Shown here piece after piece: positions 3,266 to 59,502 of a DNA stretch of 64,000 nt (positions are counted from its first letter, which is position 1; each line of letters starts with the position of its first letter). The notes under the pieces were generated by a model, which was given only the letters and a program-made list of their open reading frames with translations, ran no database searches and was not told where the DNA came from. The translations under genes and the position numbers were made by a program. The stretch is from Dehalococcoidia bacterium (lineage in GTDB: Bacteria; Chloroflexota; Dehalococcoidia; Lucifugimonadales; UBA3495), in NCBI GenBank assembly GCA_034422655.1, contig DAOUJN010000039.1, forward strand, positions 80,937-144,936, read 5' to 3'.

Positions 3266-4207
3266 ATGCTACATCCATTTCCCCACCAGCGTGGGGCGGG
3301 GCAGCCAATCGTAGAACTTGACAACGTAACCGCCGGTTACGAAGGCCAGGCGGTGCTTTCGGGAGTGGACCTGCGGATTATGCCCGGGGACTTTGTGGGC
3401 TTCCTGGGCCCCAGCGGCTCGGGCAAGACCACGCTGCTGCGGACAATCCTGGGGGCGACCAGGGTGTTCAGCGGGCAAGCCGTGGTCAACGGGCAGAAGG
3501 TGAACCGGCGGCGGTCCCAGGCCGGGTACGTGCCGCAACTGGAGACCATTGACTGGAACTTTCCGGTGACGGTGGAGGAGGTTGTGATGATGGGTTGCAC
3601 CCACCGCAATCCCTTCTTTCCCTGGCACCGGAGGGAGGACTGGCGGGCGGCCCGGGCGATAATGGAACGGCTGGGCATCGCTCACCTGGAGGGCCGCCAC
3701 ATCCGGCAGCTTTCCGGGGGGCAGCAGCAACGGGTCTTCCTGGCTCGGGCCCTGGTCAGCAATCCGTCGCTGCTGCTGCTGGACGAACCAACCAGCGGCG
3801 TTGACATGAAGACGCGGGACGAGGTGATGCACCTGCTCCACGAGCTTAACCACCAGGGCATCACCATTGCCATGACCACCCACGAAATAAACGCCGTAGC
3901 CGCCCACCTGCCCTGGCTGGTGTGCATCAAGGGACATATCCTGGCTGAAGGGCCGCCATCGGAGGTCATTTCGTCCGACGTTCTGCAAATGACCTACGGG
4001 GCGGAGATGCCGGTGATCGAGTACGAGGGAATGACCCTGGTGGCGGAGAGCCCCCACCACTTTGGCCGAAACGGGAACAGCAAGGCGTCGGTCAACGGGA
4101 GGAGCAAGACTCCGGGAGAGCCGGCCAGGCACGGCCACACCCACTTTGACAGGGCGGAAGGCCACGCGCACCCGGTGGCCGCCCCCGCGGCCGCTGGCGA
4201 CGATTAG
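3266..4207 (+). CDS. znuC: Metal ABC transporter ATP-binding protein with a His-rich C-terminal extension
   Basis: Walker A GPSGSGKTT, signature LSGGQQQRV and Walker B LLLLDEP. The extra C-terminal tail of about 60 aa contains 7 His (HHFG...HGHTHFDRAEGHAHP). Confidence 0.75.
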   Translation: MLHPFPHQRGAGQPIVELDNVTAGYEGQAVLSGVDLRIMPGDFVGFLGPSGSGKTTLLRTILGATRVFSGQAVVNGQKVNRRRSQAGYVPQLETIDWNFPVTVEEVVMMGCTHRNPFFPWHRREDWRAARAIMERLGIAHLEGRHIRQLSGGQQQRVFLARALVSNPSLLLLDEPTSGVDMKTRDEVMHLLHELNHQGITIAMTTHEINAVAAHLPWLVCIKGHILAEGPPSEVISSDVLQMTYGAEMPVIEYEGMTLVAESPHHFGRNGNSKASVNGRSKTPGEPARHGHTHFDRAEGHAHPVAAPAAAGDD

Positions 4208-4219
4208 GGAGTCCCGAAA

Positions 4220-5152
4220 GTGCTAGATCCCTTCAGCTACGAGTTTTTTGTCAACGGGGTAATAGCCGCTACCCTGGCCGGAGGCCTTTGCGGCCTGGTG
4301 GGGGTGTACGTGGTGCTGCGGCACATGTCGTACATTGGCCACGGGCTGGCCCACTCAGTCTTCGGCGGCGCGGTAGTCAGCCATTTCGTCGTGTTCAACA
4401 TTATCTTTGCCGGGGCGGCCGCGGGCTCGCTGGGGCGTGAGGGCCTGAGCGAGACCTACCTGTTCCTGGGGGCCATAACGTGGGGCTTTTTGACGGCGCT
4501 GGCCATAACCCTGATTACCCGGCTCAGGATTATCGGGGCCGATGCCGCCATAGGGATAATAACCACGGCCAGCTTTGCCCTGGGCATCGCCCTCATCAGT
4601 TACACACGGTCCTTCCGCGACTTTGAGGCCCAGCTTTTTGGCAACATACTGGGCGTAACGGGCGCGGACCTGGCTACCATACTGGTGGTGACGGTGGCAA
4701 CCGGGGCGGTGTTCCTGGTGTGGTACAAGCACTTCCTGTTTTCAGCCTTTGAGCCGGAGGTGGCGGGCTTCTACGGCGTGCCGACCTGGCTGACGGATAC
4801 CATATTTTCCCTGGTGCTGGCGGCTACCATCGTTGCTTCCCTGGACGTGCTGGGGGTGACCATGATTGCAGCGGCCATCGTAATCCCGCCCATCATTGCC
4901 CGCCTGCTGACCAACCGGTTCCGAACAATGATGGCGCTTTCTACTGTAACGGGCGCATTCTGCGGGTTCGGCGGGGTGTATGCCAGTTGGGCGCTGGACA
5001 TATCCACCGGCGCCAGCGTGGTCATTTTCTCCTCGGTCCTGTTCCTGATAACGCTGGTGTACAGCAATGTCCGGAGCCTGCTGCGCTCGGGGGCCGGCCG
5101 GGACGGGGCTGCAAAAGGACGGCCGCGAGGCCAGGCATCGGCGTTCGATTAA
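4220..5152 (+). CDS. znuB: Metal ABC transporter permease (ABC-3, ZnuB/TroC type)
   Basis: GTG start after AGGGAG. Polytopic hydrophobic protein in the expected operon position. Confidence 0.7.
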   Translation: MLDPFSYEFFVNGVIAATLAGGLCGLVGVYVVLRHMSYIGHGLAHSVFGGAVVSHFVVFNIIFAGAAAGSLGREGLSETYLFLGAITWGFLTALAITLITRLRIIGADAAIGIITTASFALGIALISYTRSFRDFEAQLFGNILGVTGADLATILVVTVATGAVFLVWYKHFLFSAFEPEVAGFYGVPTWLTDTIFSLVLAATIVASLDVLGVTMIAAAIVIPPIIARLLTNRFRTMMALSTVTGAFCGFGGVYASWALDISTGASVVIFSSVLFLITLVYSNVRSLLRSGAGRDGAAKGRPRGQASAFD

Positions 5153-44034: not shown

Positions 44035-44994
44035 GTGCGAAGCATAGACATTCATGCTCACGTCACACCGCAGTCCTATTTGAGCGCAATGAAGGAAGGA
44101 CGGGGGTGGCACGGGGTTGAACCCGAACCCCTGGATATTGAACCCCAGTTGGAATGGACGCCCGAACAGCGAATCAGGGACATGGACTCCCTGGGCGTGG
44201 ACGTTCAGGTGGCCTCCACGGGCGCCCAGTTTTACTACTACGGTAGGGACGGCCGGGAAATCGCCGCCATGCACCGGGAGTGCAACGACGAAGTCCACCA
44301 GATGACCATCGACCATCCGGACCGGTTCAAGGGCCTGGCCCAGATTCCCATGCAGGACGTGGACCTGGCCATTGCTGAGCTGGACCGCTGCGTCAACCGG
44401 CTGGGCATGGTGGGGGCGATGATCGACGACAAGGTAAACGGCAAGACCTTTGACGAGCCCGAGTTCCTGCCCCTGTGGAAGGCGGCGGAACAGATGGGCG
44501 CGGTCTTCCTGATCCACCAGGGCGGCGGAACGCTGGTTGCGCCCCGCACACGCAAATACCACCTGCCCAATACCATCGGCAACCTGGTGGACCGGGCCGT
44601 AACCTTCGCCTCCTTCGTAATGGGCGGCGTGATGGATGCCTGTCCTGATTTGAAGATTTGCCTGGCCCACGGCGGCGGCTACGCCTGCTACGGCGTTGGC
44701 CGCATGGACCGAAGCTGGGACGTGGGCCGCCTGCCCCAGATACCCCAGCCTCCCAGCGCCTACCTGAGCCGCTTCTATTACGATTGTCTGACCCACAGCG
44801 AATCGGCCCTGCGGATGCTCATCGACATGGCCGGCATCGACAAGGTGGTCTTCGGCACCGACTGGCCCTTCGACATGCAGATTGACTGGCCCGTTTCCTG
44901 GGTGCTGAGCCTGGAGAGCCTGACCCAGGACGAGAAGGAAGCCATCCTGTGGAAGAACATGGAGAAGCTGCTGGGAATAAGCAGCGACGATTAA
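44035..44994 (+). CDS. Amidohydrolase_2 (ACMSD/decarboxylase-type) family protein, paralog 1
   Basis: GTG start after GGAGG. MRSIDIHAH (HxH), IHQ, AHGGG, and GTDWPFD. Confidence 0.8.
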   Translation: MRSIDIHAHVTPQSYLSAMKEGRGWHGVEPEPLDIEPQLEWTPEQRIRDMDSLGVDVQVASTGAQFYYYGRDGREIAAMHRECNDEVHQMTIDHPDRFKGLAQIPMQDVDLAIAELDRCVNRLGMVGAMIDDKVNGKTFDEPEFLPLWKAAEQMGAVFLIHQGGGTLVAPRTRKYHLPNTIGNLVDRAVTFASFVMGGVMDACPDLKICLAHGGGYACYGVGRMDRSWDVGRLPQIPQPPSAYLSRFYYDCLTHSESALRMLIDMAGIDKVVFGTDWPFDMQIDWPVSWVLSLESLTQDEKEAILWKNMEKLLGISSDD

Positions 44995-45010
44995 GGAACT
45001 GGAGGTACCA

Positions 45011-45967
45011 GTGCGCAGCATAGATATACACGCCCACCTGACACCGCAGTGCTTCATCCATGCCATGCGGGAGGGACGCGAGTGGCACGGGGTCAAGCCC
45101 GGCGAAATGGGGATCGGCCCCCGTAACTCCTGGACTCCGGAGCAGCGCATCGACGACATGAACTCCCTGGGCGTTGACGTTCACGTGGTGTCCACCTTCA
45201 GCTTTTATTACTACTACGAACGGGACCCGCAGATAATCCTGCCCATGCACCGGGAGTGCAACGACGAGGTCTACCAGATGACGGTGGACTATCCCGACCG
45301 GTTCAAGGGAATGGCCATTATCCCCATGCAGGACGTAAAGCTGGCCGTCGGGGAACTGGACCGGTGCGTCAACGAAATGGGCTTCGTGGGCGCCATGATC
45401 GACGACCACGTCAACGGCAAGACCTACGACGAGCCGGAATTCATGCCCCTGTGGAAAGCCGCCGAGGAAATGGGCGCCGTACTGCTGGTCCACCAGCAGG
45501 GCGGGCGGACTCTGGTGCGGGACCGCAACCCCAACTATCACCTGCACAACACCATCGGCAACCTGGTGGACCGGGCGGTGACCTTCGCGTCCTTTGTCTT
45601 TGGCGGCGTCATGGACGCCTGCCCCGATTTGCGGGTCTGCCTGTGCCACGGCGGCGGTTACACCTGTTTCGGCGCCGGCCGCATGGACCGGGGCTGGCAG
45701 GTGCGGCCCGAGGCCCGGGTGAACATCAGCAACCCGCCCAGTTCCTACCTGAGCAAGTTTTACTACGACTGCCTGACCCACAGCGAGCCGGCCCTGCGGA
45801 TGCTGATTGACACCGTGGGCATCGACAAGGTCATTTTCGGAACGGACTGGCCGGCGGACATGATGATAGACTGGCCCGTGTCCTGGGTCCTGGGGCTGGA
45901 AAGCCTGACCCAGGAAGAGAAGGAAGCCATTCTCTACAAGAACCTGGAAAACCTGCTGGGCATCTGA
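45011..45967 (+). CDS. Amidohydrolase_2 family protein, paralog 2
   Basis: GTG start after GGAGG. Same ligand motifs. About 67% identical to paralog 1 over the first 60 aa by eye. Confidence 0.8.
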   Translation: MRSIDIHAHLTPQCFIHAMREGREWHGVKPGEMGIGPRNSWTPEQRIDDMNSLGVDVHVVSTFSFYYYYERDPQIILPMHRECNDEVYQMTVDYPDRFKGMAIIPMQDVKLAVGELDRCVNEMGFVGAMIDDHVNGKTYDEPEFMPLWKAAEEMGAVLLVHQQGGRTLVRDRNPNYHLHNTIGNLVDRAVTFASFVFGGVMDACPDLRVCLCHGGGYTCFGAGRMDRGWQVRPEARVNISNPPSSYLSKFYYDCLTHSEPALRMLIDTVGIDKVIFGTDWPADMMIDWPVSWVLGLESLTQEEKEAILYKNLENLLGI

Positions 45968-46022
45968 CCAGCGCCCAATCCACCGTGAATCCTGGCGCCT
46001 CCAAATTTCACAAGGGAACCCC

Positions 46023-46979
46023 ATGCGAAGCATAGATATTCACGCACATTCGACCCCCCAGTGCTTTCAGCGGGCGGTGCTGTCCGGCAACGACTGGCAC
46101 GGAATGACCGCCGCTGACGGCGAGCTTTTCAATCCCCGCAACGCCTGGACGCCCGACCAGCGCATCGCCGACATGGACTCCATCGGCGTGGACATCCAGG
46201 TGGTTTCCACCAACGCCGGTTTCTACCAGTACGGCAGGGACGTGGCGGTAACCGCCGCCATTTGCCGCGACTGCAACGACGAAATCCACCAGATGACCAT
46301 GGACTACCCTGATCGTTTGGCGGGCCTGGCCAACATTCCTATGCAGGATGCCAACGCGGCCATCGCCGAACTGGACCGGGCCGTCCACCAGCTTGGTTTC
46401 AAGGGCGCCATGATCGGCGACCAGGTCAACGGCAAGACCCATGACGAGCCCGAGTTTATGCCCATCTGGAAAGCGGCAGAGCAGATGGGGGCGGTCATCT
46501 TCATCCACCAGGGCGGCGGCACCATCGGTGCGAGACGGCAGCCCAGGTATCACGTTCTCAATACCATTGGCAACCCTTCCGACCGCGCCGTTACTTTCGC
46601 GTCCTTCACCTTCGGCGGCGTGATGGACAAGTGCCCCGACCTGAAGGTTATCCTGGCCCACGGCGGCGGCTACGCCTGCTTCGGCATCGGCCGCATGGAC
46701 CGGGGCTGGCAGGTGCGTTCCGAGGCCCGAGAGCACATCAACCGCCCGCCCAGCAGCTATCTCGACAAGTTCTACTACGACTGCCTCACCCACAGCGAAC
46801 CGGCCCTGCGAATGCTCATAGACTCGGTGGGCATCGACCGTGTGGTCCTGGGCAGCGACTGGCCTGCCGACATGAAGATTGACTGGCCCGTGTCCTGGGT
46901 GATGGGGCTGAAGAGCCTTACCCTGGACGAGAAGGAAGCCATTCTCTGGAAGAATTTGGAGAAGATGCTGGGGTTGTAG
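46023..46979 (+). CDS. Amidohydrolase_2 family protein, paralog 3
   Basis: MRSIDIHAH, IHQ, AHGGG, and GSDWPAD. Confidence 0.8.
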   Translation: MRSIDIHAHSTPQCFQRAVLSGNDWHGMTAADGELFNPRNAWTPDQRIADMDSIGVDIQVVSTNAGFYQYGRDVAVTAAICRDCNDEIHQMTMDYPDRLAGLANIPMQDANAAIAELDRAVHQLGFKGAMIGDQVNGKTHDEPEFMPIWKAAEQMGAVIFIHQGGGTIGARRQPRYHVLNTIGNPSDRAVTFASFTFGGVMDKCPDLKVILAHGGGYACFGIGRMDRGWQVRSEAREHINRPPSSYLDKFYYDCLTHSEPALRMLIDSVGIDRVVLGSDWPADMKIDWPVSWVMGLKSLTLDEKEAILWKNLEKMLGL

Positions 46980-47015
46980 CCCCACCGACACCGACCAAAC
47001 AGGAGCTTGAAATCC

Positions 47016-47978
47016 ATGCGTTCCATCGACATTCACGCCCATATCAGCCCCGAGGGTTACATTCGCGCGGTGGAGGCCGGAAGGGAGTGGTATGGCATCA
47101 GCGGCATGTCCCATGAGTTTCACATGGCGGTGCCGCGCACCATGTGGACTCCGGAGCAGCGGCTTACCGACATGGACTCCCTGGGCGTGGACGTCCACGT
47201 TCTGTCCACCAACGCCGTCTTGTATTGCTACGACCGGGACGCCAACACCGTTGCCGCCATGGACCGGGAGTGCAATGACTACGTGTCACAGCTGACCAAA
47301 GACCATCCCGACCGGTTCGCCGGCCTGGCCAACCTGCCCATGCAGGACGTGCCCGCCGCCGCCACCGAACTGGAACGGGCCATGACCCAGCTGGGGCTGA
47401 AGGGCGCGATGATTGACGACAGCGTCAACGGCAAGACCTACGACAATCCCGAGTTCTTCCCCGTCTGGGAGGTGGCCGAGCAGACCGGCGCGGTCATCCT
47501 GATTCACCAGGGCATGCAGACCGTGGTGGGGGACCGCTCCACCCGCTACCACCTGCCCAACACCATCGGCAACCTGGTGGAGCGGGCCATTACCTACGCC
47601 TCATTCGTATTCGGCGGGGTGATGGACAGGTACCCGGGGCTGCGGGTATGCCTGTCCCACGGCGGCGGTTACACCTGCTTCGGCGCCGGGCGCATGGACC
47701 GGGGCTGGCAGGTGCGGTCGGAGGCGCGGGTCAACATAAACAGGCCCCCCAGCGCCTACCTGGACCGCTTCTGGTACGACTGCCTTACCCACAGCGAACC
47801 GGCCCTGCGGATGCTCATCGACTCGGTGGGTATCGACAAGGTAATCTTCGGCACCGACTGGCCCTTCGACATGCAAATCGACTGGCCCGTGTCCTGGGTG
47901 CTGGGCCTGGAAAGCCTGACCCAGGACGAAAAGGAAGCGATACTTTATCGGAACCTGGAAAACCTGTTGGGGATTTAA
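47016..47978 (+). CDS. Amidohydrolase_2 family protein, paralog 4
   Basis: ATG at 47016 after AGGAG (the ORF opens at 47007). Same motifs. Confidence 0.8.
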   Translation: MRSIDIHAHISPEGYIRAVEAGREWYGISGMSHEFHMAVPRTMWTPEQRLTDMDSLGVDVHVLSTNAVLYCYDRDANTVAAMDRECNDYVSQLTKDHPDRFAGLANLPMQDVPAAATELERAMTQLGLKGAMIDDSVNGKTYDNPEFFPVWEVAEQTGAVILIHQGMQTVVGDRSTRYHLPNTIGNLVERAITYASFVFGGVMDRYPGLRVCLSHGGGYTCFGAGRMDRGWQVRSEARVNINRPPSAYLDRFWYDCLTHSEPALRMLIDSVGIDKVIFGTDWPFDMQIDWPVSWVLGLESLTQDEKEAILYRNLENLLGI

Positions 47979-48047
47979 GGTAAGAGCAAGTGACGGCAGC
48001 TCGAATGAGCGAATCCGATAATTTGGCAAGTTACGTTCCATTTCTAC

Positions 48048-48415
48048 CGTCATTCCGGCGAAAGCCGGAATCCAGAAGGCGGTACCGATGAAACAACCTT
48101 GCGTTTACATCCTCGCGAGCAAGCGGAACGGCACGCTTTACGTGGGTGTGACTTCTGATCCAGTCAAAAGGATCTGTCAACACAAGAATAACTTTGCGCC
48201 AGGATTCAGCAGCAGGTACGGTACCCACCTGTTGGTGTGGTACGAACTTCACGAAAACATGGAAAGCGCAATTACCCGCGAAAAGAGGCTTAAGGACTGG
48301 AATCGCCCCTGGAAGCTGGTGTTGATAGAGAAGGACAACCCCACATGGCGGGATTTGTACCCTGACATTGTCGGGACTTAAGCATTCCTGGATTCCGGCT
48401 TTCGCCGGAATGACG
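48048..48415 (+). mobile_element. GIY-YIG nuclease cassette bounded by perfect 28-bp inverted repeats
   Basis: Left end CGTCATTCCGGCGAAAGCCGGAATCCAG (48048..48075). The right end (48388..48415) is its exact reverse complement. Each end is itself a hairpin (ATTCCGGC-gaaa-GCCGGAAT). AT-richer than its flanks. Confidence 0.6.
48088..48381 (+). CDS. GIY-YIG (URI-domain, COG2827/UPF0213-type) nuclease
   Basis: CVYILASKRNGTLYVGVTSD...R...H...E..LK pattern of the small GIY-YIG family. Confidence 0.8.
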   Translation: MKQPCVYILASKRNGTLYVGVTSDPVKRICQHKNNFAPGFSSRYGTHLLVWYELHENMESAITREKRLKDWNRPWKLVLIEKDNPTWRDLYPDIVGT

Positions 48416-48486
48416 CTAAATGTTTGGTGGTTTGAGTCCGGTTTTCAAGAAATTATCCTTGTAATGCAAATACAGGAGACATGCAA

Positions 48487-49482
48487 ATGCGCAGCATAGA
48501 CATCCACGCCCACATTGCGCCGCTGGCGGCGGCCCAACTGCCCGAGGGGCAGACCTGGCACGGTTTCACCCGCCGGGAAATGAACGGGCGGCAATTCCTG
48601 GTGCAGGGCGACAAACGCCAGTGGCTCCATCCCGCCTACTCCCTCACCGCCGATGAGCGCATCGCCTACATGGACTCGGTGAACGTGGACATACACGTCC
48701 TCACCACCTGGGTGGGCATGTACAACTACGACCTGCCCGGCGACGTGGGCGCGGGGATCGCCCGGGAGTGCAACGACTACGTGGCGGGATTGACGCGCTC
48801 CCATCCCGACCGGTTTGCCGGCATGGCCACCCTGCCCATGCAGGACGTGGGCGCCGCCGTCGCGGAACTGGAGCGTTCCGTCAACCAACTGGGCCTGAAG
48901 GGGGCGCAGATTGCCGACCACGTCAACAACAAGACCCTGGACCACGAGGACTTCATCCCCTTCTGGTCGGCAGCGGAGCAGCTTGGGGCGTTGATTTTCT
49001 TCCACCAGGAGGGCGACGATACCATCGTCAAGCCCCGGGACACCAAGGGCTGGGCCATCGACAACTCCATCGGCAACCTCTCCGACCGTGTGGTTACCTT
49101 CGGCACCCTGGTATTCGGCGGGGTGCTGGACCGCTTCCCCGACCTGAAGGTGTGCCTGGCCCACGGCGGCGGGTTCACCTGCTTCGGCGCCGGCCGCCTG
49201 GACCGGGGCTGGCAGGTGCGCTCGGAAGCCCGGGAACTGGGCGCCAACATTCCCAGCACCTATCTCAACAAGGTCTACTATGACTGCCTGACCCACAGCG
49301 AAGCGGTGCTGCGGTACATGATCGACTCGGCGGGCATCGACCGCATCTTCCTGGGCAGCGACTACCCCTACGACATGGGCATTGACGAACCCACCGCCTG
49401 GGTGAACAGCCTGGAGAGCCTTACCCAGGACGAGAAGGACGCCATTCTCTGGAAGAACCTGGAAAGGGTGTTGGGTGTCTAG
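48487..49482 (+). CDS. Amidohydrolase_2 family protein, paralog 5 (most divergent)
   Basis: MRSIDIHAH, FHQ, AHGGG, and GSDYPYD. The ORF opens at 48481 (MQM...). Confidence 0.8.
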   Translation: MRSIDIHAHIAPLAAAQLPEGQTWHGFTRREMNGRQFLVQGDKRQWLHPAYSLTADERIAYMDSVNVDIHVLTTWVGMYNYDLPGDVGAGIARECNDYVAGLTRSHPDRFAGMATLPMQDVGAAVAELERSVNQLGLKGAQIADHVNNKTLDHEDFIPFWSAAEQLGALIFFHQEGDDTIVKPRDTKGWAIDNSIGNLSDRVVTFGTLVFGGVLDRFPDLKVCLAHGGGFTCFGAGRLDRGWQVRSEARELGANIPSTYLNKVYYDCLTHSEAVLRYMIDSAGIDRIFLGSDYPYDMGIDEPTAWVNSLESLTQDEKDAILWKNLERVLGV

Positions 49483-49519
49483 AAGAGAGATTCCTGCGAG
49501 GTAATACGGTGAGAAATGC

Positions 49520-49557
49520 GGGGCAGCCAATACGGTTGCCCCGGCGTGTTTCTATTT
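49520..49557 (+). terminator. Terminator after the amidohydrolase array
   Basis: GGGGCAGCC-aatac-GGTTGCCCC followed by a T-rich run. Confidence 0.5.
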
Positions 49558-49575
49558 GGTTTGGCGGGCGGATGC

Positions 49576-49584
49576 TGGTATGAT
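49576..49584 (+). promoter_or_regulatory. Extended -10 element TGgTATGAT
   Basis: Read directly from the sequence, about 40 nt upstream of the VOC gene. Confidence 0.35.
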
Positions 49585-49622
49585 AGCGCCATACTCAAAA
49601 CACGGAAAAACGGAGGAAGCCC

Positions 49623-50012
49623 ATGCTTGATGATCCCATTAGGCTCAAGAACATAAACCACATAACCTATAACGTGAAGGACAAGGACGCCGCCCTGAAG
49701 TGGTACGAGGATTACCTGGGCCTGAAGCAGATTCCCAAGATGGTCAACAGCGACCACCTGTACTGGCTGCAACTTCCCAGCGGCGCCATGGTCCACATCA
49801 TCGAAAACCCGGAAGCCCCGTCTGCGCCTTCCCACCACACCGCCTTTGAGGTTGACGACATCGAGGCTTCCCACAAGTACTTCAACAACCGGGGCATCGA
49901 GACCACGGACATCCAGACCCGCAACGACGGCCAGCGGGCCTTCTACATCAACGACCTGGACGGCAACCGCATAGAGCTTTGCACCGTTTCGGGCTTCGGG
50001 GTGCTGGTTTAG
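49623..50012 (+). CDS. VOC-family (glyoxalase-like) protein
   Basis: INHITYNVKDKDAALKWYEDYLG...HTAFEVDD...DLDGNRIEL. Confidence 0.75.
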   Translation: MLDDPIRLKNINHITYNVKDKDAALKWYEDYLGLKQIPKMVNSDHLYWLQLPSGAMVHIIENPEAPSAPSHHTAFEVDDIEASHKYFNNRGIETTDIQTRNDGQRAFYINDLDGNRIELCTVSGFGVLV

Positions 50013-50079
50013 TTCGACCTGGCGCCGCCGCAGACAGTTCGCTAATCACTGAACCGACCTTCATAAAGGAGGAAAGCAC

Positions 50080-51003
50080 ATGAAGCTGGCCTTTTTTGAC
50101 GATTACAGGCTGGGCGTGGTCAAGGGTGACAACCTGGTGGACGTTTCGTCCGCCGTCAGCGGTGTTGCCCACACCTCGCCGCAGGACCTGATAAACCGGG
50201 TAATCGAGGGGTTTGACGGGCACCGCGCCGCCATTGAAGCCATCGTAAATGCGGAAGACGGGTTGCCCATCAGTTCGGTGCACGTGCGACCGCCCCTGCC
50301 CAAGCCCTACACCATCGTCTGCATGGCGGTCAACTACATGGAGGACGGGACCAGGGACGAACCGGCCCCCATCAACGCCTTCCAGAAGTCGCCCCACTGC
50401 GTTGTCGGCCCCGACGAAACCATAATCCTGCCCGACATTCCCGCCACCATCTTTGAGTTCGAGGCGGAGATGGCCTTCGTCATCGGCAAGCGGGCGGAGT
50501 TCGTGAAGCCGGAAGACGCCTACGATTACATCTTTGGCTACCTGAACTTCATTGACGGCTCGGCCCGCGGGGTGCTGCCCCCGGGCAACACCTTCTACCA
50601 GATGAAGTCCAGGGCAACCTTCGCGCCCATCGGGCCCTACATCGTTACCGCCGACGAGTACACCGACCCCCTGAACCGGCAGGTGGTGCTGAAGGTCAAC
50701 GGGGAAGTCAAGCAGAACTACAACACCAGCGACATGGCCCACCAGATTCCCAGGATTATGGAGTGGGTTACATCCATTCATCCCCTGGAGCCCGGCGACA
50801 TCGTGGCCACCGGCACCAACCACCGGGGCCTGAGCGCCCTGATGGACGGGGACGTGATCGACCTGGAGTGCGAGGGCCTTGGCAACCTGCACCTCAACGT
50901 CCGGGACGACCTGAAGCGCACCTGGGCGCGGGAGACCCGCCTGGACCGCCAGAACCAGGGCTTTGACACGACCACCCCGCAGTTGACGGGCAAATACAGC
51001 TAG
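50080..51003 (+). CDS. Fumarylacetoacetate hydrolase (FAH) family protein
   Basis: RBS AAGGAGG. CMAVNY...FEAEMAFVIGK...TGT FAH-fold motifs. Confidence 0.85.
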   Translation: MKLAFFDDYRLGVVKGDNLVDVSSAVSGVAHTSPQDLINRVIEGFDGHRAAIEAIVNAEDGLPISSVHVRPPLPKPYTIVCMAVNYMEDGTRDEPAPINAFQKSPHCVVGPDETIILPDIPATIFEFEAEMAFVIGKRAEFVKPEDAYDYIFGYLNFIDGSARGVLPPGNTFYQMKSRATFAPIGPYIVTADEYTDPLNRQVVLKVNGEVKQNYNTSDMAHQIPRIMEWVTSIHPLEPGDIVATGTNHRGLSALMDGDVIDLECEGLGNLHLNVRDDLKRTWARETRLDRQNQGFDTTTPQLTGKYS

Positions 51004-51158: not shown

Positions 51159-52526
51159 GTGGACATTACCAGCCGTATCGCGGAGTACGTTACCGACCTC
51201 GGAATCGAGGACTTCCCGCCCGAAGCGGTGGAGGCTGCCAGGGGAGCGATCATGGACTGCCTGGCCTGCATGCTGGCCGGCAGCAGGGAAGACCTGGCCG
51301 ACATACTCTGCCGCTACGTCGCCGCCGAGAGCGCCGCCCCCGTTGCCGGCGTGGTGGGCAGAGGCTTCAAGACTTCGGCGGCCAACGCGGCCCTGGTTAA
51401 CGGGGCTATGGCCCACGCGCTGGACTACGACGACATTACCCAGGTTACGAAGACGCACCCCACGGCCGTCCTGCTGCCGGCCGCGCTGGGCGTGGCGGAG
51501 GAAGCGGGGGCTTCCTGCCGGGAACTGCTGCTCGGCTATATGACCGGCTTCGAGGTGGCCTGCGCCGTGGGCGAGTCCTTGAGCGAAGCCTATTACGATG
51601 ACCTGGGCTGGCATCCCACCGGCCCGCTGGGCGCTGTCGGGGCAGCGGCGACGGCCAGCAAGATTATGGGCCTGGACGCAGAGCGCACGGCTATGGCCAT
51701 TTCCCTGGCGGCTTCCCAGGCATCGGGGCTGCGGCAGAACTTCGGCACCATGACCAAGCCCTTCCACGCCGGCGACGCCGCCCGGGCCGGGGTGGCTGCG
51801 GCCCGGCTGGTGCGGGCGGGCTTTACCGCCAGTCCGGACGCGCTGGAGGGCCGGTTCGGGTTCATCCGTGCCTTCTCAGGCGGGCAGGGTTTCGACGCCG
51901 CGGAGGTTGTGCAAAACCTGTCTAGCAAATGCTACCTGGTCGAATCGGGCATCGAAATCAAGAAGTACCCCTGCTGCGGCAGCGCCCACCTGGCCCTGGA
52001 CGCCACCTTCAGCCTGCTGTCCCACGGCGACATTGACCCCCGAGCGGTGGACAGAATAGAAGTGATGGTGGACTTCGACCCGCCTCGCTCGCTGATACAC
52101 TCCCGCCCCACGTCGTCGCTGGAGGGCAAGTTCAGCATGCAGTACTGCCTGGCCGCCGCCCTGCTGGATCGCCGGGTGGGGCTGCAGTCCTTTTCCGACG
52201 AGCAGGTACTGAGGCCCGAGGCCCAGGCGCTGATTCCGCGCATAGATATGCAGCGCATTCCGGGGAACGAGGGCAAACCCAGCTGGACCGAGGGCTACCA
52301 CCAGGTTGACGTATACCTGAAGGACGGCGCCGTGCTAAGGGGGGAGGCCCATCGAGCCAGCAGCGGCGCCCTGAGGGGTGTAACCATGGACGACATCCGG
52401 GAGAAGTTCCAGGACTGCGCCTTGCAGAATCTGCCCGATGCAACGGTGGCGATGCTACTGGACTGCCTGGGCCGGCTGGACGAAGCGGAACCGGTCAGCG
52501 AACTGGCGGACCTGCTCCGGGGCTGA
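51159..52526 (+). CDS. MmgE/PrpD family protein
   Basis: GTG start after GGAGG. AxxAIMDCLACMLAG, ALDYDD, HP motif, and full length of 455 aa. Confidence 0.85.
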   Translation: MDITSRIAEYVTDLGIEDFPPEAVEAARGAIMDCLACMLAGSREDLADILCRYVAAESAAPVAGVVGRGFKTSAANAALVNGAMAHALDYDDITQVTKTHPTAVLLPAALGVAEEAGASCRELLLGYMTGFEVACAVGESLSEAYYDDLGWHPTGPLGAVGAAATASKIMGLDAERTAMAISLAASQASGLRQNFGTMTKPFHAGDAARAGVAAARLVRAGFTASPDALEGRFGFIRAFSGGQGFDAAEVVQNLSSKCYLVESGIEIKKYPCCGSAHLALDATFSLLSHGDIDPRAVDRIEVMVDFDPPRSLIHSRPTSSLEGKFSMQYCLAAALLDRRVGLQSFSDEQVLRPEAQALIPRIDMQRIPGNEGKPSWTEGYHQVDVYLKDGAVLRGEAHRASSGALRGVTMDDIREKFQDCALQNLPDATVAMLLDCLGRLDEAEPVSELADLLRG

Positions 52527-59474: not shown

Positions 59475-59502
59475 CGTCATGCCGGCGAAAGCCGGTATCC
59501 AG
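59475..59502 (+). repeat. Solo copy of the GIY-YIG-cassette terminal hairpin
   Basis: CGTCATgCCGGCGAAAGCCGGtATCCAG matches the 48048 repeat at 26/28 positions. The two changes fall on opposite arms of one stem pair (T:A becomes G:T). Confidence 0.65.

Follow-up and report, generated by a model that had tools for sequence, protein, structure and literature searches.

The Ssn family consists of single-domain GIY-YIG proteins of approximately 94 aa, labelled cd10448 (GIY-YIG_unchar_3) in CDD, and was described by Chenal et al. in Nature Communications in 2025 (PMC11893778). The characterised enzymes come from Neisseria and Wolbachia. For four Ssn proteins, binding and cleavage of a hairpin motif have been demonstrated directly. 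The motif is bound only as single-stranded DNA (ssDNA) and is cut a few nucleotides 5' of the motif. Double-stranded DNA is not cut by SsnA, there is no interaction with RNA, and mutation of Y6, Y17 or E64 abolishes cleavage by SsnA (PMC11893778). The Neisseria motif, NTS, is CGTCATTCCCGCGMAVGCGGGAATCYRG, and the generalised search pattern, SRM, is HGTCWYN(0-2)YYVSBRHN(0-5)WNVSBRGN(0-2)RNCYNB (PMC11893778). Homologs, defined in the same study by E < 1e-10 to SsnA, occur mainly in Pseudomonadati, and 42% of them have motifs on both sides of the gene. This NTS-ssn-NTS layout was compared there with insertion sequences and, in the discussion, with REP-associated tyrosine transposases (RAYTs) and their REP hairpins. 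Here, a locus of this type is described from a 64,000-nucleotide stretch of a Dehalococcoidia (Chloroflexota) metagenome-assembled genome (MAG). The whole stretch, from contig DAOUJN010000039.1, is referred to as the window. The source scaffold has a length of 533 kb. Its ENA record (scaffold_30) stops at the equivalent of approximately window position 51999, 12 kb short of the window end, so the window must derive from another or longer assembly version.

The window locus is very probably a member of the Ssn system, with a probability of approximately 85%: a GIY-YIG nuclease gene lies between two inverted SRM/NTS hairpins. This assignment is made because the protein is 67% identical to an SsnA ortholog, its three catalytic residues are conserved and the flanking repeats fit the SRM pattern. 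The arrangement itself was already published in 2025. The window is a further example, located in Chloroflexota and carrying a swapped base pair in the hairpin stem.

The nuclease gene and its hairpins

The gene (48088..48381, + strand) encodes a protein of 97 aa. It matches the Pfam GIY-YIG family PF01541 with an E value of 1.7e-16 over residues 4-76 and contains no other domain. In a BLASTP comparison with the 94-aa SsnA ortholog of N. gonorrhoeae DSM 9188 (L052:2998-3282, where L numbers denote retrieved loci), 62 of 93 positions are identical (67%; E 7e-48). In length and in the Y6/Y17/E64 positions, this ortholog agrees with the published N. meningitidis protein. Residues Y7, Y18 and E65 of the window protein align with Y6, Y17 and E64 and are invariant across 22 family members. 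The AlphaFold2 model (pLDDT 87) shows a single compact domain, and the closest structures to it in the Protein Data Bank (PDB) are GIY-YIG proteins, including small UPF0213 proteins and Slx1. A sequence search of the PDB returned only weak matches to Slx1 and no solved Ssn structure. None of the NCBIfam families is matched by the protein, and its match in PADLOC is marginal (E 0.0014). The ratio of nonsynonymous to synonymous substitution rates (dN/dS) is 0.05-0.12, and the gene is under purifying selection. Homologs on plasmids are rare (33 records, mostly chromids or mislabelled chromosomes).

The left hairpin repeat is the 28-mer CGTCATTCCGGCGAAAGCCGGAATCCAG at 48048-48075 on the + strand. 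The right hairpin repeat, at 48388-48415 on the - strand, is its exact reverse complement. The CGTCAT end points outward in both. The random expectation for an inverted match of 28 nt is 0.00, and none is present in 100 dinucleotide-preserving shuffles. In the repeat-finder output the arms stretch to 31 nt with 97% complementarity, and no other long inverted pair spaced by up to 3 kb was reported for the whole window. Within each arm, ATTCCGGC-GAAA-GCCGGAAT (48052-48071 in the left arm) forms a stem of 8 bp and a loop of 4 nt. This hairpin is the centroid structure when the arm is folded as ssDNA, with z values of -4.4 (left) and -2.9 (right) in 50-nt contexts.

The 28-mer departs from the NTS consensus only at positions 10 and 19, which leaves 26 of 28 identical. 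These two bases are partners in the stem, and their exchange is a compensatory swap from C:G to G:C. The GTC at 48049-48051 and the C after the palindrome at 48072 are positions on which cleavage and binding in Neisseria are reported to depend critically (PMC11893778). Both arms and a solitary copy of the motif satisfy the SRM pattern, which has 4 matches in the window compared with 0.63 in shuffled sequence.

The left arm is separated from the ATG by a leader of 12 nt (48076..48087, + strand) with a putative Shine-Dalgarno-like AAGG/GGCGG, as read from its letters, and the right arm begins 6 nt after the stop codon. Sigma-70-like promoters and intrinsic terminators were not found around the cassette, and neither hairpin is followed by a T-run. 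A permissive Rfam scan of 47500-49000 returned only chance-level snoRNA and psbNH matches.

A preliminary description of the window had placed a 97-aa GIY-YIG reading frame between exact inverted 28-mers, each of them a hairpin with an 8-bp stem. It had also described the cassette as AT-richer than its flanks, as parting paralog 4 from the most divergent paralog 5 of an array and as lacking a target-site duplication. These observations were reproduced, at the same coordinates. The GC content is 52.4% in the cassette, 63-65% in the flanking genes and 61.6% in the window. Paralog 5 is 50-56% identical to the other paralogs, compared with 65-73% among paralogs 1-4. The longest direct repeat at the cassette ends is 3 nt, which is no better than in mismatched-flank controls. 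A third copy of the motif was missed in that description. This copy, CGTCATGCCGGCGAAAGCCGGTATCCAG, is located at 59475..59502 on the + strand and has 2 mismatches to the cassette arms, at the paired stem positions 7 and 22, which produce a G-T pair. It is intergenic, 38 nt past the stop codon of a 552-aa open reading frame (ORF), and has no GIY-YIG gene in its vicinity. In appearance it is the common ATACCGG...CCGGTAT variant plus one further mutation.

The cassette is flanked by non-coding, AT-rich spacers. The left spacer (47979..48047; 46% GC) extends from the stop codon of amidohydrolase paralog 4 (47016..47978, + strand, 320 aa) to the left hairpin. The right spacer (48416..48486; 37% GC) extends from the right hairpin to the ATG of amidohydrolase paralog 5 (48487..49482, + strand, 331 aa). 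The surrounding region (44035-51003) contains an oligopeptide-type ABC transporter, five tandem Amidohydro_2 (ACMSD-like) paralogs, and glyoxalase and FAA-hydrolase genes, in that order. The amidohydrolase operon is kept in many Chloroflexota assemblies, down to approximately 79% identity of paralog 5.

Hairpins with and without ssn genes at other loci

Homologs were collected by a one-genome-per-species scan with a family alignment, which produced 80 loci from many phyla, including N. gonorrhoeae. An SRM is located within 200 nt of the gene on the upstream side at 48 of the 80 loci, on the downstream side at 55 and on both sides at 39. The outward polarity of the window, in which the upstream copy is on the gene strand, the downstream copy is inverted and the CGTCAT ends face out, is present at 32 loci. 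The density of SRM matches is 4.09 per kb within 200 nt of the gene and 0.093 per kb in the remainder of the approximately 3-kb flanks, a 44-fold difference. Between the upstream hairpin and the gene there are typically 13-20 nt. Homologs of ssn in a Dehalococcoidia MAG (L020) and a deltaproteobacterial one (L037) are flanked by the identical 28-mer.

The N. gonorrhoeae locus (L052) has a different arrangement. The motifs closest to the ssnA ortholog, at 110 nt on the upstream side and 80 nt on the downstream side, point inward, which is the opposite of the outward, abutting layout in the window.

Two further forms of the motif occur in the collected loci. In L046 (3866-3891) and L056 (3348-3373), fully symmetric palindromes of the form CGTCATTCC...GGAATGACG have a CGTCAT end on either strand and are without the post-stem C reported as critical for binding. 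This form is expected if both arms of one cassette recombined and the interior was deleted. One of these palindromes is located 69 nt downstream of an Ottowia ssn gene. A half-site, GTCATTCCCGC, which corresponds to the 5' half of the hairpin, is present just outside a full arm in the left flank of L070, L073 and L085 and in both flanks of L087. It starts approximately 20 nt and ends approximately 9 nt from the outer arm end. These half-sites could be nested or aborted insertions.

Most copies of the window 28-mer are not beside an ssn gene. A scan of JGI metagenomes for the exact 28-mer returned at least 120 stretches, and 83 occurrences were counted in 80 retrieved loci. Only 3 of the 83 are next to an ssn gene. 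For 52, at least 500 nt are readable on both sides and contain no ssn gene, and 28 are too near a contig end to be judged. Among the 70 copies that could be evaluated, 26 have a tail-to-tail inverted partner, usually 12-25 nt away, which is the polarity of the cassette. Head-to-head partners (2) and direct partners (3) are few. Many gene-less copies (L092, L093, L096, L099, L105, L111, L116 and L128) share an upstream block, TAAAAAGTC-N2-AAAA, approximately 25 nt away. Most of these are paired tail-to-tail with a different stem variant (CTGGACCCCGG... or CTGGATGCCG...). The conserved block and the partner hairpin suggest a longer composite repeat.

The paralog-4/5 spacer and the question of mobility

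The five closest homologs of the window protein in a database of 5.8 billion proteins (82-88% identity) are all located in the same paralog-4/5 spacer, in related assemblies. In the four that were retrieved as loci (L002-L005), the two hairpins are also conserved. Within each genome the two arms have the same loop, which is GAAA for the window and, for L002-L005, GAAG. The right spacer is 71 nt in the window and likewise in L002-L005. The left spacer is 52 nt longer in the window than in L002-L005, the stretch in common is poorly conserved, and the spacer is absent from the empty sites described below.

In other relatives the same position contains no nuclease gene. The spacer is clean and 41-48 nt in length in L006, L007, L009-L011, L212 and L213-L215. 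In L008, an otherwise empty spacer contains a degraded hairpin that matches at 20 of 28 positions, and none of 300 shuffles is as good. This is the sole tested spacer with a significant hairpin remnant. Candidate remnants in the spacers of L006, L007, L009, L212 and L213, which would have represented excision footprints or a target that was there beforehand, were rejected because their matches are no better than those of shuffles (p > 0.17). The L008 region (4899-5000) contains CCGTCATCCCGGCGAAGACCAATATGACGG, preceded by the half-site CGTCGTTCCG, and resembles a fusion of the outer halves of a left arm and a right arm. It may be a deletion footprint.

A fourth state, hairpins without the gene, is present in a related lineage (L216, 2692-3000; L217, 1-239). 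In this lineage the spacer is a gap of 309 nt that contains an SRM, an inverted SRM-like copy 17 nt further on and a decayed right-arm hairpin approximately 70 nt before the paralog-5 ATG. The right arm of the window ends 71 nt before the same ATG. A tblastn search of the 309-nt gap of L216 for a decayed ssn gene returned nothing, even at E 100. The L216/L217 spacer appears to be a gene-less derivative of the cassette. Among the sources of this lineage is a sample from the study that yielded the window.

In a bootstrap tree of the two flanking genes, the window, L002/L004/L005, L003, L006 and L212 are grouped with 100% support, and the branching inside this group is star-like. The filled lineages form a clade in 3.5% of replicates. 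Because they are not resolved as a clade, two or more gains or losses have to be assumed. The ssn unit is an insertion/deletion polymorphism among close Chloroflexota relatives. As the filled, hairpin-only and empty versions of the same site show, the unit entered the spacer in an ancestor of this Chloroflexota group, and it has stayed there under purifying selection.

Several results weigh against the window locus being an Ssn unit with this history. Between the window and L002 or L003, silent divergence (dS) is 1.1-1.5 in the cassette and its two spacers compared with 0.36-0.60 in the flanking genes, an approximately threefold excess. Plain vertical descent fails to account for this divergence of the cassette and spacers. 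The drop in identity is confined to the interval from the paralog-4 stop to the paralog-5 start (window 47979-48486 versus L002:5945-6399 and L003:1594-2048), and the comparison of L002 with L003 has no excess silent divergence of the cassette. The excess suggests that the whole spacer was either replaced through recombination with a carrier that is more distant or acquired separately. Within the readable 64-kb window, the number of solitary SRM copies is one. In Neisseria, changing the palindrome while keeping the hairpin abolished enzyme activity (PMC11893778), and specificity of the window protein for the CCGGC stem is assumed from their co-occurrence.

The most serious competitor is that the hairpin-to-hairpin unit is itself an insertion sequence, an autonomous transposon with the approximately 95-aa GIY-YIG ssDNA nuclease as its transposase. 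Nicks outside each hairpin on opposite strands would release or copy the unit, the spacer states would be real insertions and excisions, and the gene-less doublets would be non-autonomous derivatives. This is a minority possibility, unlikely on balance, and if true it would represent a new class of bacterial transposon. The three spacer states among star-like relatives, with their two or more gain or loss events, are in its favour, as are the frequency of tail-to-tail doublets with cassette polarity, the near-identical hairpins around homologs of distant phyla and the published analogy with insertion sequences (PMC11893778). Across 33 cassettes, conservation ceases at the outer CGTCAT end, except for an enriched pyrimidine at -1. 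Two contigs assigned to the same gammaproteobacterial MAG (L033 and L071) have approximately 90% identity over a stretch that is bounded by the outer GTCAT of the left hairpin and the outer end of the right hairpin, and their flanks are unrelated.

Other results weigh against an autonomous transposon. The L033 and L071 contigs come from MAG bins, and the two copies might belong to different strains. In L019 and L041, from one deltaproteobacterial MAG, the duplicated unit is larger and has a different inverted repeat, CATAAGCGCTAACTTAA ... TTAAGTTAGCGCTTATG, at its outer ends, beyond the hairpins. The window unit stays at one site, under purifying selection, across lineages with a flanking-gene dS of approximately 0.4-0.5, and the exact window protein is recorded on one contig only. 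A target-site duplication above the control level is present in 0 of 33 cassettes (the window and 32 others, at offsets of 0-3), and a conserved target was likewise not found. From the stop codon to the ribosome-binding site, filled and empty spacers share no alignable sequence, so the ends of the insertion cannot be placed from the locus. Approximately 70 nt of extra spacer on each side is also without counterpart in the empty sites, and the hairpins cannot be fixed as the boundary. To our knowledge, no strand-transfer or ligation activity has been described for GIY-YIG enzymes of the Ssn type. L019 also has an extra hairpin nested in the loop of one arm, and a AAGCGCTAACTTA-like sequence adjoins the cassettes of L018 and L037.

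Far less probable is that the repeats are generic REP-like stabiliser or terminator hairpins, incidental to the gene or acting as regulatory 5' and 3' RNA stem-loops for mRNA expression or stability. The position of the upstream hairpin against the ribosome-binding site and of the downstream one directly after the stop codon would suit this role. The same applies to the solitary copy just past a stop codon, and most 28-mer copies are away from ssn genes. However, the motif is 44-fold enriched beside ssn with fixed polarity across phyla, and the loop variant is the same in both arms of each genome. The absence of a T-run or terminator-like site also argues against it, and four Ssn proteins bind and cut the motif directly and do not interact with RNA (PMC11893778).

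A free-standing GIY-YIG homing endonuclease, which would cut the duplex empty site and have its gene copied in by repair, is the least credible reading: the GIY-YIG fold, a weak hit (E 2e-4) to a PHROG family of homing endonucleases, presence and absence at one site and the AT-richness of the cassette are in its favour, but the 97-aa single domain has no DNA-binding module, its 67% identity is to an ortholog of SsnA, which spares duplex DNA (PMC11893778), no homolog is present in 50,697 phage records (E 1e-10), unrelated contexts always have the same hairpins and share just the -1 pyrimidine bias, and in the empty sites of relatives nothing is conserved from the stop codon to the ribosome-binding site.

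The assignment to the Ssn system changes how the broader claims of the preliminary description are read. That description had proposed a compact, autonomous nuclease cassette of 368 bp that may be mobile. A compact hairpin-bounded unit that is an insertion relative to close relatives, with hairpin-to-hairpin homology at L033/L071, is in line with this proposal. The unit is not of an undescribed kind and has the published Ssn arrangement (PMC11893778). The homing-endonuclease framing does not fit the ssDNA-only cleavage of the relatives or the lack of a DNA-binding domain and of phage homologs. The statement that no transposition or homing mechanism is described for such units still holds, as no demonstrated mechanism was found in the searchable literature. 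Two observations had been named that would speak against mobility. The first, fixation at one syntenic site, agrees with the position of the five closest homologs but not with the clean empty sites in relatives. The second, repeats without association with GIY-YIG genes, agrees with the 3 of 83 copies that adjoin ssn but not with the enrichment beside ssn. The suggested comparison of loci with and without the cassette yielded empty sites but not exact ends or a target.

Other spacers of the array in relatives hold small inserted genes that are absent from the window, namely Uma2 (PF05685), HEPN_Swt1 (PF18731) and unannotated ORFs of 321-329 aa. These inserts are located at L002:2324-3118 and 4162-4950, L004:1614-2408 and 3488-4477, and L005:1796-2590 and 3674-4639. 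An SRM variant, CGTCATTCCCGCGTAGGCGGGAATCTCG, adjoins the Uma2 insertion (L004:1486-1513; L005:1668-1695). The spacers of the amidohydrolase operon seem to collect small nuclease-type genes.

Proposed role and comparison with known systems

By homology with the Neisseria and Wolbachia enzymes, the 97-aa protein would bind the folded motif only when the motif strand is single-stranded. It would nick a few nucleotides 5' of CGTCAT and would be inactive on duplex DNA, on RNA and on the complementary strand. Given the outward polarity of the arms, the two strands would each be cut immediately beyond one end of the cassette. Extrapolating from the published cleavage position (PMC11893778), the + strand would be cut to the left of 48048, in the last few bases of the left spacer, and the - strand to the right of 48415, in the first few bases of the right spacer. 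The solitary copy at 59475-59502 is a further predicted target. The most likely role would be the processing of motif-bearing ssDNA, for example incoming or replicating DNA, and the same activity would most likely serve the upkeep or spread of the hairpin repeats.

The system was rediscovered here from raw sequence, and with the 2025 publication no new category is opened. The locus is a clean natural example outside the Pseudomonadati, in which one orthologous spacer occurs in four states: cassette, hairpins only, degraded hairpin and empty. The four states, the outward polarity, the hairpin-to-hairpin homology and the excess of doublets make the mobility of NTS-ssn-NTS units directly testable. 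This bears on a question left as a hypothesis in PMC11893778, namely whether these units are, or were at some time, mobile elements that propagate their hairpins in the way proposed for RAYTs and REPs. The natural pair of a protein and a hairpin with a swapped stem base pair is also useful for mapping Ssn specificity and is relevant to ssDNA tools.

The closest known system is that of Neisseria Ssn. Both have a single-domain GIY-YIG protein of approximately 95 aa with Tyr/Tyr/Glu catalytic residues, a motif-gene-motif layout and solitary motifs elsewhere, and both have a 28-nt motif composed of CGTCAT, an 8-bp stem, a GNAN-type loop and CCAG. Unlike the published Ssn set, the window host is a Chloroflexota MAG rather than a member of the Pseudomonadati, and the stem contains CCGGC rather than CCCGC. 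The motifs abut the gene and face outward, unlike the distant (80-110 nt), inward motifs of N. gonorrhoeae. A role in natural transformation cannot be carried over from Neisseria to the window protein.

The palindromic core of the motif, ATTCC...GGAAT, is of the same repeat family as the dRS3 repeats and NIMEs of Neisseria, and the intergenic clustering is also similar. Unlike dRS3 (ATTCCC-N8-GGGAAT, in Neisseria), the window copy has a swapped stem pair and oriented NTS/SRM flanks (CGTC..., ...CCAG).

Among proteins of known structure, the top matches are UPF0213 proteins, B. halodurans BH0048 (PDB 1ZG2) and E. faecalis EF2693 (1YWL), and the nuclease domain of Slx1. The 1ZG2 and 1YWL proteins are similar in size to the window protein. 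UPF0213 and Slx1 are only 21-28% identical to it and are different subfamilies, and we know of no association of either with NTS-type hairpins. Homing endonucleases of the I-TevI type share the GIY-YIG fold and the presence or absence of a small nuclease gene. They have a separate DNA-binding domain, cut duplex DNA and occur in introns and phages, unlike the single-domain window protein, which is encoded in an intergenic position of a chromosomal amidohydrolase operon.

Compared with classical insertion sequences, the unit has inverted repeats but neither a target-site duplication nor a (DDE-type) transposase domain. It also resembles the IS200/IS605 elements with their "peel and paste" mode: an ssDNA-acting enzyme, hairpins near the ends, a very small size and no target-site duplication are common to both. 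In IS200/IS605 the enzyme TnpA is an HUH Y1 protein and the hairpins at the two ends are on the same strand, whereas the only domain in the window unit is GIY-YIG and its hairpins are inverted. Unlike Ssn cassettes, IS200/IS605 elements have a demonstrated ability to transpose.

In organisation, the unit resembles the RAYT/REP (REPIN) system, in which the transposase genes are reportedly framed by inverted REP hairpins (Nunvar 2010 and Ton-Hoang 2012, as cited in PMC11893778). RAYTs are HUH/Y1 transposases with no homology to the GIY-YIG window protein, and a covalent DNA-protein intermediate is not expected for the latter, so the likeness is one of organisation only. In both systems, one conserved nuclease gene lies between inverted hairpin repeats that also occur without the gene, many of these gene-less copies are inverted doublets, the gene is mostly vertical and under purifying selection, and there is no target-site duplication. 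The window unit behaves like RAYT/REP in this respect: a conserved, mostly vertically inherited nuclease gene sits within its own hairpins, and these hairpins are scattered elsewhere as gene-less singles and doublets.

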